DNA of 59,050 nucleotides from Pirellulales bacterium (GCA_029246985.1 JAQWMC010000018.1:1-59050); one strand, 5' to 3'; positions 1,756-24,496 are shown, numbered from the stretch's first letter. Numbers and translations: made by a program. The notes: generated by a model from the letters alone, not told the origin.

Positions 1756-2727
1756 GTGAATGATATCCGTACCATTGCCTTAGTTGCTGGCGTCCTGCTT
1801 TTGCTATCTGTAGTGACAGGGGTAGGGCAATTTCTGAAACGGCATCCGGACCGAGGTATCGATGCTGCTGCTGTGCGGACATTTAATATGCGAATTCGTG
1901 GGTGGTGGGTCTTGTGTACGGTTCTGGCCGCCGCTTTCTGGCTTGGGTCGACTGCCACGGTCATCCTGTTTGGCTGTGTTTCTTTTTGGGCATTGCGAGA
2001 GTTCATTACACTCACGCCAACTCGCAAGGGGGATCACAGGGCTTTGTTTTGGGTGTTCTTTCTTTTCACGCCCCTCCACTATGTACTTGTCGGACTGAAT
2101 CGATACGACATTTACAGTGTTTTTCTCCCTGTCTACGCGACACTTTTCGTTCTTGCTAGGGCGGCGGTAGCTGGCGACTATAAGCGGTTTCTTGAACGAA
2201 CAGCAAAAATTCAGGCGGGTCTTGTTGTCTGTGTGTACTGCTTGTCATTTGCACCAGCTCTTCTCGAGCTTCAAGTCGACGGAGGGCCGGAACGAGTGAG
2301 TGAATTAGGTAGCCGTGACGCAAACTTTCGGCTGCTGTTCTTTTTAATTCTTCTTGTCCAATTCGCCGACTGTATGCAGTATGTATGGAGTAGAATGCTG
2401 GGGCAGAACTTAGTTGCTGCCGCAGTCAGTTCGAATCGGACATGGGAAGGCTTGCTTGGCAGTGCAACGAGTACGGCGCTCCTTGCAGCAGTTTTATGGT
2501 GGGCCGCCCCGCCATTTCAGCCATGGCAGGCTGCAATCGTGGGGCTGGTAGTCGCGATTGTGGGATTTGCTGGCGGCATGACAATGTCAGCCATCAAGCG
2601 AGACCGCGGTGTAAAAGATTATGGAACGCTTGTAGTTGGTCATGGTGGCGTGCTTGATCGTATTGATTCGATCTGCTTTGCAGCACCAGTTTTTTATCAC
2701 ATGACAGTTCTAGTTATTGGCGGCTAA
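1756..2727 (+). CDS. cdsA: Phosphatidate cytidylyltransferase (CDP-diglyceride synthase)
   Basis: Polytopic membrane protein with the C-terminal signature GHGGVLDRIDS. GTG start. Confidence 0.85.
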   Translation: MNDIRTIALVAGVLLLLSVVTGVGQFLKRHPDRGIDAAAVRTFNMRIRGWWVLCTVLAAAFWLGSTATVILFGCVSFWALREFITLTPTRKGDHRALFWVFFLFTPLHYVLVGLNRYDIYSVFLPVYATLFVLARAAVAGDYKRFLERTAKIQAGLVVCVYCLSFAPALLELQVDGGPERVSELGSRDANFRLLFFLILLVQFADCMQYVWSRMLGQNLVAAAVSSNRTWEGLLGSATSTALLAAVLWWAAPPFQPWQAAIVGLVVAIVGFAGGMTMSAIKRDRGVKDYGTLVVGHGGVLDRIDSICFAAPVFYHMTVLVIGG

Positions 2728-3668
2728 TTGTGATTGGTTTCCCGCTGAGTGCGTTGAGCTCGCTGAACATAAATCGATTGTCGTGCCGCCGTCGCAGAAA
2801 TTCTATCTCTTGTGGGTCCTTTTACGTATGAGCCGTCAGGGCTTTGCCCCCGGGTGGTTCGTGCGATGTCTTGAACCTGAGGGATCGCAGCGGCAACTGA
2901 CGCCGGCGGGGCAGGGCAACCACGCTTTACCCATTCAAGCCAAACGGTTTGCAGTTTACCAATATCATGAATGCCGTAATACTGACTCAACGACTCTGGC
3001 CAATCGCTGCTTGCTAAACCGTCACCGACGAAATGAATGTATCGTTTTCTGCCGCCTCGCTCTATCAGGTAGCGAGCAAGCGAGTAGCCCTGCGAATAGA
3101 GTGGAAGCACATCTGCCGGATATTCTTTCATAGCGAACATTTCGGGGAATGAAATCCCTCTGCCGGTCCGTAGAAACTCTATGAGTAGTCTGTGCTGCCG
3201 AGCTCGTTCTACTGGATGCTCTACGGTTGTGCAGGCGCCCTCATCGGCCCATCGTGGCAGCGGTTGACGAAAGTGGCTCGCGAAAATTGTGTGAGTGACC
3301 TCATGTGGGAGAACAGAGTCGAGAATCCGTTCTTCACTGCCTTGGATAGTCATTGTCCAGTTGAAGACTTCGCCTCTATCAAATACAAAACTTGTTGCAC
3401 CACCTGCTCCAAGTGTTGGGGCTACTTCTGCTGTTATCGGACACGGCTGACTCCACCGAGGAAGCGGTTGTCCGATCCATTCAATGGCGAGGTCGTGGCG
3501 ATACTGTTCGGCAGCATCTCCAATCTTCTGTGCTAACTGAGGGCTGGGGGCTTCAACAACAAAGTTTGCTGTTCGGTAGCCTGCTGCGAATAGAATATTG
3601 GCCGGTAGGATAAACAACGTTATCGCACCGATGAGAAAAAATCTTCTTTCGAGTTTTCCAAACTGCAT
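2724..3668 (-). CDS. Secreted putative gluzincin-type zinc metallopeptidase
   Basis: N-terminal signal-like segment (FFLIGAITLFILPANILFAAG). HEVTH (HExxH) is followed 16 residues later by WADEG, which resembles the M1-type WLNEG third-ligand motif. The family assignment is inference. Confidence 0.55.
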   Translation of the reverse strand: MQFGKLERRFFLIGAITLFILPANILFAAGYRTANFVVEAPSPQLAQKIGDAAEQYRHDLAIEWIGQPLPRWSQPCPITAEVAPTLGAGGATSFVFDRGEVFNWTMTIQGSEERILDSVLPHEVTHTIFASHFRQPLPRWADEGACTTVEHPVERARQHRLLIEFLRTGRGISFPEMFAMKEYPADVLPLYSQGYSLARYLIERGGRKRYIHFVGDGLASSDWPESLSQYYGIHDIGKLQTVWLEWVKRGCPAPPASVAAAIPQVQDIARTTRGQSPDGSYVKGPTRDRISATAARQSIYVQRAQRTQRETNHN

Positions 3669-7624: not shown

Positions 7625-7681
7625 GTATGGAACAAAATACTTCGGGTCCGTTCATACAGAATTGGTAAGGAATATTCAGTG

Positions 7682-8863
7682 ATGCCTGGCAATGGTCCTG
7701 TTTATCTGGATAACCATGCAACCACTCGAGTTGACCCCGACGTGGTTGAATCGATGATTCCGTGGTTTACAGATAACTACGGAAACGCAGGCAGTGGCAC
7801 GCATGCGATGGGGACGGAGGCTCGTGACGCCGTGGAGGCAGCAAGGAAACGTGTGGCACACGCAGTCGGTGCGACTCCTCGAGAGATTGTTTTTACCAGC
7901 GGAGCAACTGAAAGTATCAACCTGGCGATGGTGGGCGCGGTAAGTCGTCAGTCAATGAAGCACTGTGTTGTCCCCGAAACAGAGCACGCAGCTGTCCTCG
8001 ATGTGGCTGATCAACTCGAGAGGCAAGGCCTCTCTGTCTGTCGTTTACCAGTTGCAACGAAAGAGAGCAAAGCTCCTGGTGCTCTTGATCTTGACCGTCT
8101 TGATGAAATGGTCAGCTCGGGGCCAGCTCTCGTTTCGGTCATGTTTGCAAATAATGAGATCGGCTTGGTGCATCCAATTTCAGACATTGCTGATATTGTG
8201 CATGCCCATGGTGCTTTGCTTCATGTCGACTGTGCACAGGCAATCGGGAACTGCTCTTTGGATGTAACTGCACTTGGTGCTGACTTAGCCAGTTTCTCAG
8301 CACACAAGTGTCATGGCCCAAAAGGTGTTGGTGCTTTATATGTCCGGCGTCAACAACGAGCTGTAAGAATTGATCCACAGGTTTTTGGAGGTGGTCAGGA
8401 ACGTGGTATCCGGAGTGGAACACTTAATGTGCCCGGCATAGTAGGAATGGGGAGAGCCTGTGAGCTTGCGGGTAAAACGCTGGGCGTAGCCACAAGTCAT
8501 ATGGCTTCTTTACGCACAACACTCTGGAACCGGCTCCTGGAATATATTCCAGATATACGATTGAATGGTCCACCGATTGACTCAGACGTACGACTTCCAA
8601 ATAACCTAAATATCCTTATTCCCGGAATTGATGGTGCCACTCTTCTTGCTGAACTTTCACGAACCGGAGTGGCTGCAAGTTCCGGCAGCGCATGCTCGAG
8701 CGAACAGCCAAGGCCTAGCCATGTCCTGCGTGCTCTCGGGTTATCGGAGGAAGAAGCCCGGCAAAGTATTCGATTTGGGGTTTCACGAATGACCACACTT
8801 GAGGAGATTGAGTCGGCAGCGGAGCGGCTGAAAGTAGCGGTTCAGTCCCTTGGTCACGTCTAA
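7682..8863 (+). CDS. Cysteine desulfurase, class I (IscS/NifS-like), PLP-dependent
   Basis: PLP-lysine motif SAHKCHGPKGVGALY and active-site loop SSGSACSS. GTG at 7679 immediately precedes ATG at 7682. Confidence 0.9.
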   Translation: MPGNGPVYLDNHATTRVDPDVVESMIPWFTDNYGNAGSGTHAMGTEARDAVEAARKRVAHAVGATPREIVFTSGATESINLAMVGAVSRQSMKHCVVPETEHAAVLDVADQLERQGLSVCRLPVATKESKAPGALDLDRLDEMVSSGPALVSVMFANNEIGLVHPISDIADIVHAHGALLHVDCAQAIGNCSLDVTALGADLASFSAHKCHGPKGVGALYVRRQQRAVRIDPQVFGGGQERGIRSGTLNVPGIVGMGRACELAGKTLGVATSHMASLRTTLWNRLLEYIPDIRLNGPPIDSDVRLPNNLNILIPGIDGATLLAELSRTGVAASSGSACSSEQPRPSHVLRALGLSEEEARQSIRFGVSRMTTLEEIESAAERLKVAVQSLGHV

Positions 8864-21772: not shown

Positions 21773-21897
21773 GATCGTAGGATCTTCTGGAAGTCATGAG
21801 GAGTAAAGTCAGTTTCTAAAAATGGTGGATTAAACCTACTCGGTTGAGTCTGATTGATGGATAGGGGCATGAGCCTTCACATGAGGAATTCGTACCA

Positions 21898-22248
21898 TTG
21901 AGAACTAAAAGTTATTTATTCATCGGGGCAGCCATTGGCATGCTGGCATCTGCTACGATTTCCCTGCCTTCGTGGGGCAGTGCGAATGAATCAGTACAAG
22001 AAAGTGTTACCCAGAATCGATGCTGCAGTTGTAGTGGTTCTTTTCCTCGTGAGGCGGCTCGTCTCTGTGCAAGTTGTTCGCACAAATATAGTTCGAAATG
22101 TTGTCTCTGCAGCGGTTCGTTTCCCAAGGACATCGCACGTCTGTGTGGGACGTGTTCGAACAAGTATCGCTCGAAGTGTTTTGTTTGTAGCCGAGCCTTC
22201 CCAAAAGAAGTTGGGAGACTATGCAGCCGATGTACGAGCAAATACTAA
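21898..22248 (+). CDS. Small predicted-exported cysteine-rich protein with three tandem CxxC-x11-CxxC (zinc-ribbon-like) repeats
   Basis: TTG start preceded by GAGGA. Signal-like N-terminus (RTKSYLFIGAAIGMLASATISLPSWGSA). The three 26-aa repeats are conserved at the protein level but use different synonymous codons, which argues for real coding. Confidence 0.6.
   Translation: MRTKSYLFIGAAIGMLASATISLPSWGSANESVQESVTQNRCCSCSGSFPREAARLCASCSHKYSSKCCLCSGSFPKDIARLCGTCSNKYRSKCFVCSRAFPKEVGRLCSRCTSKY
22021..22245 (+). repeat. Three tandem 78-nt (26-codon) coding repeats: 22021-22098, 22099-22176, 22177-22245
   Basis: CCSCSGSFPREAARLCASCSHKYSSK / CCLCSGSFPKDIARLCGTCSNKYRSK / CFVCSRAFPKEVGRLCSRCTSKY, aligned by eye. 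Confidence 0.8.
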
Positions 22249-22289
22249 GTGAGCCGCAGTATATTTTCAGGCCGAAAGAAAAAAGTTCT

Positions 22290-23381
22290 TTATCGGTTGC
22301 AAAGAAAATGGCATACGTCACCGTCTTGCATGACATACTCTTTACCCTCGATACGTAATTTTCCTGCAGCACGAATTTCTTTTTCGCTACCAAGGTTTTC
22401 GAGGTCTTCGACAGAATGGATTTCTGCTCGAATAAATCCTTTTTCAAAATCTGTGTGGATAACACCGGCAGCTTGGGGGGCCGTTGCTCCTATTGGCACA
22501 GTCCAGGCGCGAACTTCTTTTTCTCCTGCCGTGAAGAAGCTTTGTAGCCCAAGGGTTGCGTAGCTGGCTCTGGCAAGAACGGCTAAGGCTGGTTCACGTA
22601 ATCCAACATCTGAAAGCATCTCAAGACGGTCATTGTCGTCAAGTTCAGCAAGTTCAGCCTCAAGTTTCGCGCACACGGCAACAACATTAGCATGTGCAGA
22701 GGAAGCAGCTTCACGAACCTTCTTGACCAGTTCACCAGTTCCTTCGAGATCAGATTCATCAATGTTGGCTACGTAAAGAATGGGCTTTGCAGAAAGGAGG
22801 CCAAGTTCTTTGATAGCCGCTTGCTCTGTATCTGTGAGTACAAGCGTTCGGATTGGTTTCTCAGCTGTGAGATGGCTTTGACACTTTTTCAGTACATCGA
22901 GTCGGCTCTTGGCTTCCTTGTCCTGACCCCGCGCGTTCCGTTCTGCTTTGGGTAAAATTGTTTCAAAGTGCTGCAGGTCGGCGAGCAGTAATTCAAGTTC
23001 GATGGTTTCCATGTCAGCAACAGGGTCAACGGTTCCGGCAACATGGATCACGTCTGGATCATCGAAGCATCGCACAACTTGCAGAATTGCATCGACCTCA
23101 CGGATGTGCGCGAGAAACTTATTCCCCAAGCCCTGACCTTCACTTGCTCCCTGCACTATTCCTGCAATATCGACCAGTTTGAGTGCTGCAGGAATCACTT
23201 TTTGTGTCTGAACGTGCGTCGTAATCCGATCGAGACGTCTGTCAGGAACGCTAACCATACCCTCGTTGGGTTCGATCGTGCAGAAAGGATAGTTTTCACT
23301 TTGTGCTGCCTTGGAAAGAGTTAACGCATTAAAAAGCGTGCTTTTCCCAACATTTGGCAGTCCAACAATACCAGCTTCCAT
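22290..23381 (-). CDS. ychF: Redox-regulated ribosome-binding ATPase YchF
   Basis: N-terminus [20 protein letters not shown] (Walker A) and a C-terminal TGS-like end [13 protein letters not shown] at 23381 avoids overlap with the upstream desaturase gene. Confidence 0.9.
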
Positions 23382-23386
23382 ATGTG

Positions 23387-24496
23387 TTACGAGGTGGCAG
23401 TTGCCGCCCTTTCTCCACCAAAGATAGTTCTTTTTGCAACCACCCACCAACCCGGCCGATCAAGTCCTCTGTACGGAGAGTTCTCTGGCAGGTGTTGGAT
23501 AAGGTAGCTGTGTGCTCCAGCTAGGTTGTGGTACGGGAGTGACGGAAAGAGATGGTGCAATGCGTGATAACGGATTGAAAACGGAAAGAAAAGGAGTGTC
23601 AGCGGGTCATTGCGGGTGAAATTACACGAATCAAGAATGTGCGATTCGACGTCACTTGTCTCCCCGTCTCCATCGAAGTGGTGGTCAGCAAGTTGTCGCA
23701 TTTGGTTCATTATGAGTGTTGTTAAACCAAGCACGTAAAGGAGAGGGATACGACTCAGTGGGGCGGCACCTGTAAAAACAGCAAGCGGAATAGCAGCTGC
23801 TCGGATAAAGCAAAGCACTTCCATTGCGGTAATTACTTTCCTGTCGAAGTTGTTGATTTGTCGTCTATATTTTAAGTTCAGTGTGAGTGAACTGCCCCGC
23901 TCGAGTACAAACTCGCGAAGTCTGGGATGTAGAAAGCTTAATGGAGCGAGTAGAAAACGAAGGAAAACGATAATAGGGTATGCCATTATGAAGAGGCTGT
24001 AGCAAAGAGCGCTCTTCCAGTTGCCTGCTTCTAATACGTTGGCAACGTACTCAGGATCTTCAGGCGTGCCATACATTCGCTGACTGTGATGGTCACGGTG
24101 ATGTCGAGTGAAAAAGCATGAGGGAGTCAGTGTGAAAACACCAACGAGAAGATTCCAAGCCACTTTAAACGTTCGCATCTCGTTTGCACCCAAGTGACAG
24201 ACTTCATGAATCAACGAGCCCAGTCGATAGAGCCAAAAAACTGCGATTGGGAATGCAGCTATTTGTTGCCACGAACCAAGTGGTGCAAGCAGATAAATCA
24301 TTGCAGCTGAGTAGGCGAAGACCAGACTCAGCAAAAAGTCAGCCCAGTAACGAACGGGCGATACTTTAAAGAAATTCGTATCAGACTGGCTGATAGTTTT
24401 ACGGGCGTCACGAATCCATGAAGGAACACTGCCTGTGTAAGAAGAGTCTGTTAATTCGTTCGTCGATACGTCAACGGCCTCAAGTGTTTGCTGCAT
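23387..24496 (-). CDS. Membrane fatty-acid desaturase family protein
   Basis: Three histidine boxes (HEVCH, HHRDHH, HALHH) with intervening hydrophobic segments. Confidence 0.8.

Follow-up and report, generated by a model that had tools for sequence, protein, structure and literature searches.

Overall architecture of the cysteine-rich protein

A small open reading frame (ORF) in a Pirellulales bacterium, in which paired CxxC motifs are repeated behind an apparent signal peptide, raises the question of whether its product leaves the cytoplasm and whether its cysteines would then hold metal or form disulfides. The window, i.e., the whole 59,050-nucleotide stretch of DNA that was analyzed, contains the ORF at 21898..22248 (+) with a TTG start and 116 residues plus a stop codon, exactly as an earlier note on this DNA had claimed. 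The ORF itself, its homologues and dN/dS values of 0.04-0.3 point to a coding sequence for an exported mini-protein with three Cys4 units. The encoded protein is divided into the following components: a signal-peptide-like region (residues 1-27, 21898..21978 (+)), an acidic linker of 14 residues (residues 28-41, SANESVQESVTQNR, 21979..22020 (+)) and three consecutive units, namely unit 1 (residues 42-67, CCSCSGSFPREAARLCASCSHKYSSK, 22021..22098 (+)), unit 2 (residues 68-93, CCLCSGSFPKDIARLCGTCSNKYRSK, 22099..22176 (+)) and unit 3 (residues 94-116, CFVCSRAFPKEVGRLCSRCTSKY, 22177..22245 (+)), each of which carries a CxxC-x11-CxxC arrangement.

All three units fit the pattern C-[CF]-x-C-S-[GR]-[SA]-F-P-[RK]-[ED]-x-[AG]-R-L-C-x-x-C-[ST]-x-K-Y that had been proposed for them. 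Alignments revealed that the four CxxC cysteines of unit 1 were invariant in all homologues, and the C-terminus of unit 3 (...SKY or SRY) was kept across the subfamily of the window protein. The earlier count of 12 cysteines holds for the invariant CxxC cysteines but not for the whole protein, which contains 14; the extra residues are C43 and C69, and the same position in relatives is occupied by I, V, K or F. The arrangement C..C-x11-C..C was found four times in all six frames of the 59-kb window, three of these being the tandem copies described here, and base-shuffled windows contained a mean of 0.06 occurrences. The sole other match, at 8224 (+) (CRLCTGNRELLFGCNCTWC), lies within a 394-aa ORF (7679-8863).

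The units were also said to have diverged at synonymous codons, and this was evident from the comparison: they were 52-69% identical in amino acids versus 26-35% at third codon positions, and identical residues used the same codon at only 3/12 to 8/18 sites. Because the units share residues but not third codon positions, the triplication is old and maintained at the protein level. The A/T-richness that had been remarked on was marginal and not notable, with a GC content of 0.45-0.49 across the gene versus 0.45-0.53 in the flanking genes.

Distribution of the family and variation in repeat number

A word-indexed search yielded 15 relatives, a profile search 69 clusters and genome and metagenome scans 25 loci; when 1.84 billion cluster representatives were searched exhaustively with an HMM, only 23 hits were obtained. 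The carriers were nearly all Planctomycetota or marine and other metagenomes, and the flanking genes belonged to typical planctomycete families (PSCyt, DUF1501 and SBP_bac_10). Members were unnamed or 'hypothetical', except for P0018, which had one automated JGI label that is evidently mistaken. We found no described planctomycete CxxC-repeat family or bacterial PHF5 relative in the literature. As judged from these searches, the family is undescribed and restricted to Planctomycetota. The named carriers were Pirellulales, Planctomycetia, Planctomycetaceae or 'Planctomycetes' MAGs, with one exception labelled Chitinophagaceae. In this uncultured MAG (locus L003, CAZRKH010000138.1), the family member is convergent with another RND pump; the label suggests mis-binning, since every other named carrier is planctomycete.

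Homologues with variable repeat number, which the earlier note had predicted, were indeed present and contained one (~56-68 aa), two (91-93 aa) or three units (114-148 aa), and the CxxC-x11-CxxC spacing did not vary in any member. In the subfamily of the window protein, three position-specific units were strictly conserved, and full-length loci always contained three. Some proteins of the window's clade were altered: P0005 (92 aa) had lost exactly one unit in frame, the deletion junction lying between units 1 and 2; the homologue at L014 5049-5384 had a 3' frameshift that replaced its last 4 residues with a 29-aa tail; and P0004 (190 aa) diverged within unit 3 and continued into an unrelated C-terminal extension rich in Cys and His.

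In the larger subfamily, the units within one protein were nearly identical, and three, two or one of them followed nearly identical signal peptides (MSSQIRIVRGVMCSVLLL...; P0045/P0027/P0075, P0076, P0077, P0071 and P0066). No tandem paralogues were found at locus L028 (8001-8279). Because the same signal peptide occurs with one, two or three units and L028 has no tandem paralogues, the repeat number in this subfamily looks like an allelic copy-number polymorphism at one locus between strains. Single-unit proteins with only four cysteines were located on long contigs (P0072, contigs up to 435 kb; the one place examined was on a 73-kb contig).

The linker was of variable length among relatives. 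As evident from alignments and His counts, proteins of a sister clade carried a His-rich stretch (4-9 His) in this region, directly before the Cys domain (HAHHHGREH, GHAHHHGHEH and HTHIDAHHH; L021 8001-8276, L022 1161-1394, P0009 and P0013), and this stretch was absent from the window protein. Additionally, the relatives P0024, P0025, P0026 and P0032 had no signal. P0025 (80 aa; L043 2376-2618) lies 20 nt upstream of a TIR-domain gene (2639-3496) on the same strand, with which it may form a defence-type operon.

Genomic context

The gene lies between the RND operon and a convergent ychF, as had been noted, and the window neighbours are TetR, MFP, RND, YchF and desaturase genes. The order TetR, membrane-fusion protein, RND pump and Cys gene, convergent with ychF and desaturase, was confined to the window's clade, in which the Cys protein was 76-87% identical versus 92-98% for the pump and YchF and is thus faster-evolving. 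Distant members were found downstream of an aldehyde-dehydrogenase-like gene or rimO, and others beside FGE-sulfatase, PQQ_2 propeller or exopolysaccharide genes. The RND-pump neighbourhood was therefore not conserved across the family, and the differing contexts between clades rule out a conserved operon partner. In particular, the RND protein scored 437 bits as a multidrug permease versus 248 bits as CusA/CzcA, and the regulator was TetR/CecR-like; a metal-efflux link via the adjoining pump was therefore rejected. Given the non-conserved contexts and the multidrug-type pump, the Cys gene behaves independently of its surroundings, which give little indication of what it does.

PQQ_2 neighbours recurred in three lineages, and such genes are very abundant in planctomycetes. 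PQQ_2-type beta-propeller genes were located at or near members in L032 (6967-7923), L035 (6496-7785), L038 (8182-12347) and L039 (4964-5893), and in L039 a CopA-like heavy-metal P-type ATPase gene was found two genes from the family member. Both kinds of neighbour could be a coincidence, these genes being common in planctomycetes. We also observed that the mechanically called ychF ORF (22290-23450 (-)) begins with a TTG 23 codons upstream of the conserved start. The true start is likely the ATG at 23381, which would remove the apparent overlap of 64 nt between ychF and the fatty-acid desaturase gene (23387-24496 (-)).

N-terminal region and probable export

The N-terminal region of the window protein consists of an n-region (MRTK), an h-region (SYLFIGAAIGMLASATISL) and a c-region (PSWG). 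The hydropathy maximum (KD) was 2.35 in an 11-aa window at residue 7, and the hydrophobic core was ~19 aa long. In a manual rule-based check, SPase I cleavage was predicted at G27/S28, with small residues at -3 and -1 and Pro at -4, and the protein contained all three regions of a Sec/SPase I substrate, i.e., MRTK, the hydrophobic core and LPSWG|S. The signal-like N-terminus, which had been seen in the window protein, extends to the whole family: Arg or Lys followed by a hydrophobic core was present in 74/75 members, and the cleavage-site variants were SWG|S, ALS|G and AVS|G. From these features, we infer Sec export with cleavage after Gly27. The mature protein would then contain 89 aa (~9.7 kDa, pI ~9.1) and be cationic, with 15 K+R versus 5 D+E. 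The gene very probably encodes a real exported Cys4-repeat protein.

Other fates of a small secreted or cysteine-rich product were considered. A Tat substrate was rejected for the window protein and its closest relatives, which contain no RR motif; among 73 members, RR occurred in 15, including P0013 of the sister clade, and RR-x-hydrophobic-hydrophobic in 7. A bacterial lipoprotein was rejected since the protein has no Cys before residue 42 and thus no lipobox (L-[AS]-[GA]-C) closing the signal peptide. A c-type cytochrome was rejected since CxxCH is absent, the sole His near a CxxC being that of CASCSH (CxxCxH), which is N, S or L in homologues. A RiPP precursor was also rejected, with no maturase (radical SAM or cyclase) or peptidase-ABC exporter among the window neighbours and no maturase in 10 other contexts.

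Possible metal binding or disulfide formation

We tentatively propose that the pre-protein would be exported via Sec by means of a cleavable N-terminal signal peptide, with the predicted cleavage after Gly27, and that in the mature protein three autonomous modules of 26 residues would follow a short acidic linker. In each module, a loop of 11 residues would connect a CxxC knuckle to a second CxxC, at which a short helix would start, in the geometry of a Cys4 metal site, and the four thiolates would bind one metal ion; Zn(II) would be most likely, and Cu(I) or Cd(II) possible. The product would be a periplasmic or envelope metal-thiolate protein that may serve for buffering, as a chaperone or as a metal-stabilised scaffold for binding, and it may share its descent from one knuckle repeat with the PHF5-like zinc proteins. 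Taken as a whole, a Sec-exported, cationic, metal-binding protein with three Cys4 knuckle-helix modules is a reading to which we give somewhat less than an even chance. Within it, both the occupancy by metal rather than disulfides and the physiological role are what we infer.

Metal binding is favored by the relatives of known chemistry, which are all zinc proteins, and the His-rich stretches before the Cys domain in the sister clade hint at metal handling. Cysteines exported into an oxidising envelope usually form disulfides, however, and Zn(Cys)4 sites seldom occur outside the cytoplasm. Additionally, there is no conserved metal-handling neighbour, and the adjoining RND pump scores as multidrug.

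Disulfide locking is a near-equal rival, one we consider only slightly less likely. According to this explanation, the same exported protein would have its cysteines oxidised into two disulfides per unit (six in all, and possibly also C43-C69), and it could be a mini-protein that is secreted or resides in the envelope, rigid and strongly cationic (net ~+10). Its role could be that of a wall component like other Cys-rich planctomycete wall proteins, an anionic-polymer binder or an antimicrobial-type peptide; the low dN/dS argues against an arms-race effector. A Sec-type signal is found across the family, oxic seawater is the habitat and the compartment is expected to be oxidising. Zinc-finger-like motifs occur as disulfides in oxidising compartments, as in the small Tim proteins. 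The excess of K+R over D+E in the mature protein also suits this explanation, as does the finding that the two extra cysteines co-occur in nearly all subfamily members. Weak matches to Kazal, a disulfide domain, were obtained for 12/45 members, the window protein itself scoring 13.6 bits (E = 0.072) against the 21-bit cut-off of PF00050, and Cys-rich wall (YTV) proteins have been documented in Planctomycetia (PMC12673574). The Kazal-like matches span only ~21/49 profile positions and no full 6-Cys domain, so membership among the Kazal inhibitors was rejected. The disulfide explanation is further weakened by the lack of membership in YTV or any other disulfide domain, by the zinc chemistry of the sequence relatives and the His-rich linkers of the sister clade, both of which point to metal, and by an odd number of cysteines in the mature part of P0016.

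If the metal-binding reading is true, Planctomycetota export Cys4 'zinc-finger-type' modules into the envelope, where such chemistry is rare. The choice between metal and disulfides would also tell something about redox conditions and metals in the planctomycete periplasm, an unusual compartment.

Predicted fold and similarity to PHF5A

Searches of the window protein against Pfam and NCBIfam revealed nothing significant, the best match being the FmdE treble-clef finger (E = 0.021). The match to Pfam PHF5 (PF03660) reached 11.4 bits (E = 0.4), below the 26.7-bit gathering threshold. Among 45 members, weak Pfam matches were found to DZR_2 in 21 (best E = 3.6e-7) and to PHF5 in 10 (E < 0.01), and the signal-less metagenomic proteins P0024, P0025 and P0032 passed the Pfam PHF5 threshold. 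The highest-ranking solved structure for the profile of the wider family (HMMER, profile A3) was PHF5A (5syb_A), which aligned collinearly across the six knuckles with an E-value of 5.7e-8; this value is to be read with the inflation of scores by Cys-rich repeats in mind, as PRDM9 C2H2 arrays reached E = 2e-7 in the same search. As a control, PHF5A was shuffled with its cysteines fixed; the true sequence scored 31.2 bits versus 1.3 +/- 3.8 bits for the shuffles, and 0/1000 shuffles reached it. Since the Cys-fixed shuffles never reached the score and hhalign aligned the family with PHF5A at 94.7% probability over 52 columns, the similarity to PHF5A extends beyond the cysteines. At the level of sequence, PHF5A is the nearest relative detected, and the link to the PHF5A zinc knot is statistically supported but unproven. 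The proposal that the repeat was undescribed thus stands in that no curated family claims the protein, but the family profile does reach PHF5A.

The AlphaFold2 model of the full protein based on 16 sequences was unusable (mean pLDDT 41.7). With 45 sequences, one model of five reached a pLDDT of 74 and a pTM of 0.58, and in this confident model a short helix began at the second CxxC in every unit. The modelled knuckle-plus-helix geometry is like that of treble-clef metal sites. Comparison of the predicted structure with solved folds gave no match.

The three-unit domain might instead, though we consider this unlikely, fold like PHF5A/Rds3, a trefoil knot whose zinc sites are made by non-adjacent knuckles (1st+4th, 2nd+5th CXXC). 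In that case knuckles 1-4, 2-5 and 3-6 would pair around three zinc ions in a pseudo-threefold trefoil knot. The six knuckles are collinear with those of PHF5A at nearly identical spacing, the subfamily of the window protein strictly conserves exactly three position-specific units, and the hhalign probability is high. The one- and two-unit members, however, cannot form the knot fold as monomers, the window protein falls short of the PHF5 cut-off, and a knotted zinc protein would need to fold after Sec export. Because single-unit proteins with four cysteines exist on long contigs, each unit would be able to satisfy its own cysteines, which favors a beads-on-a-string arrangement of the three units rather than a PHF5-type knot; a knot is possible for the strictly three-unit subfamily. 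We regard it as rather unlikely that the three-unit proteins are exported bacterial homologues of the PHF5A/Rds3 knot in a fully symmetric six-knuckle form (1-4, 2-5 and 3-6). If they are, a 26-residue CxxC-x11-CxxC unit was triplicated to give the eukaryotic knot, and such a unit still exists as one-, two- and three-unit proteins in Planctomycetota.

Membrane topology

The N-terminal hydrophobic segment could alternatively be an uncleaved anchor with the basic Cys domain in the cytoplasm; the product would then be a zinc-ribbon protein of the ordinary kind, tethered to the membrane. Residues 5-30 form a long uncharged stretch, and the ~19-residue core could span the membrane; the Cys domain is very basic, and the signal-less relatives are presumably cytoplasmic. 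In the window protein, however, the charge changes from +2 ahead of the core to -1 behind it. Nearly all members have positive charges ahead of the core, followed in the window's subfamily by an acidic or neutral flank. In the larger subfamily the flank behind the core is neutral to slightly positive, and the charge rule decides little there. At the N-terminus, an N-out/C-in arrangement would run against the positive-inside rule. Typical SPase I residues at -3/-1, together with a Pro or Gly breaker, persist even in proteins whose core has diverged; in particular, LPSWG or LPTWG was kept in all window-clade orthologues but one (P0003, LLSWG). We consider the anchor quite unlikely, and cleavage and export of the Cys domain are preferred.

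Start codon, selection and expression

A Shine-Dalgarno-like GAGGAA was read from the sequence at 21883..21888 (+), 9 nt upstream of the TTG, and the alignment revealed that the GAGG core of this ribosome-binding site and the start position were conserved in orthologues. The earlier note had left two starts to be compared, TTG-21898 and ATG-21940; the starts of the orthologues, codons 2-14 and the conserved ribosome-binding site all favor the former. In the orthologues L001, L010 and L011, an ATG was present at the position equivalent to the TTG, and no internal ATG was found. Changes in codons 2-14, which lie upstream of ATG-21940, were mostly in the third position (e.g., 2/0/6 and 1/1/5 by codon position); these codons thus evolve as coding sequence, which supports the TTG start. 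Further upstream, the block GGTTGAGTCTGATTGATGG (21842..21860 (+), 38-56 nt before the start) was the best-conserved non-coding stretch in an alignment of six orthologous intergenic regions, and it is a candidate promoter or regulatory element. A sigma-70 consensus scan revealed no promoter, and no intrinsic terminator was found flanking the gene.

Ten orthologous loci had the same 116-codon length and no indels at dS up to ~1.5. Among these orthologues, dN/dS was 0.04-0.09 for the Cys domain and 0.12-0.3 for the signal region and linker, so that selection on the protein, previously proposed from codon usage within the window, was borne out. These comparisons indicate a real gene under strong purifying selection. 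A chance ORF or non-functional remnant, which might be suspected from the absence of the exact protein, under either start model, from ~15 billion predicted proteins in an exact look-up and from the long antisense shadow ORFs that overlap the gene (21912-22241 (-) and 22007-22465 (-), 109 and 152 aa), is effectively refuted by the low dN/dS without indels, the 69 homologous clusters and a motif count far above chance.

Gene callers evidently missed the gene in this lineage; it is small, starts with TTG and is overlapped by long antisense ORFs, which may explain why it was not called. We also observed that a 222-aa antisense ORF (2158-2826 (-)) covers the whole homologue in L002 and that a smaller antisense ORF overlaps the homologue in L003. 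Contigs from metatranscriptome-labelled libraries tile 21787-22257 at at least 99% identity, with a depth similar to the patchy coverage of the neighbouring genes; as these are assembled contigs only, with DNA carry-over possible, they are weak evidence of expression.

Comparison with known systems

We compared the family of the window protein with known cysteine-rich systems. The DZR_2 (PF18912) and DZR (PF12773) domains likewise contain tandem CxxC...CxxC pairs. In contrast, they are cytoplasmic modules of larger proteins, whereas the present proteins are signal-bearing stand-alone repeats, and the window protein itself gave no hit to DZR_2 or DZR. The YTV proteins are exported Cys-rich cell-wall proteins of Planctomycetia and resemble the family in being exported, Cys-rich and planctomycete-restricted (PMC12673574). 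They differ in being larger and in repeating a different unit, and searches for the YTV motif and Pfam YTV in the window protein gave no hit at E <= 10.

In MerP (CxxC) and the copper storage protein Csp1, which are small exported proteins, reduced cysteines bind soft metals. The likeness is a functional analogy with no sequence or fold relation; MerP and Csp1 sit in metal-resistance operons, whereas the window gene has no conserved metal neighbour. The small Tims and CHCH proteins (twin CX3C or CX9C) are small modules of the oxidising mitochondrial intermembrane space, with paired Cys motifs and a zinc-finger look. They differ from the family in their CX3C or CX9C rather than CX2C spacing, their helical hairpin and their eukaryotic origin, and no sequence similarity between them was detected.

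PHF5A/Rds3 is similar to the family in its CxxC knuckles, which have almost the same spacing and are collinear over the whole 75-aa domain. The two also share the non-Cys features of [KR]-C-[VI]-[IL]-C and R-[IL]-C-x-x-C-N, and both have 12 Cys for three sites, which bind three zinc ions in PHF5A and are putative in the window protein. Several differences were present: PHF5A is a eukaryotic, nuclear protein (a subunit of spliceosomal SF3b) that lacks a signal peptide; only one Cys makes up its first knuckle, with a C-terminal Cys complementing it; and its beta 'stem', built by its N- and C-termini, is absent in the window protein. The predicted structure gave no match to PHF5A, and one- and two-unit members exist. 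According to a structural study, the PHF5A fold is shared only with the yeast homologue Rds3 (PMC5458519). A link between the two families, if real, would offer a simple repeat-based origin for the eukaryotic knotted zinc protein.
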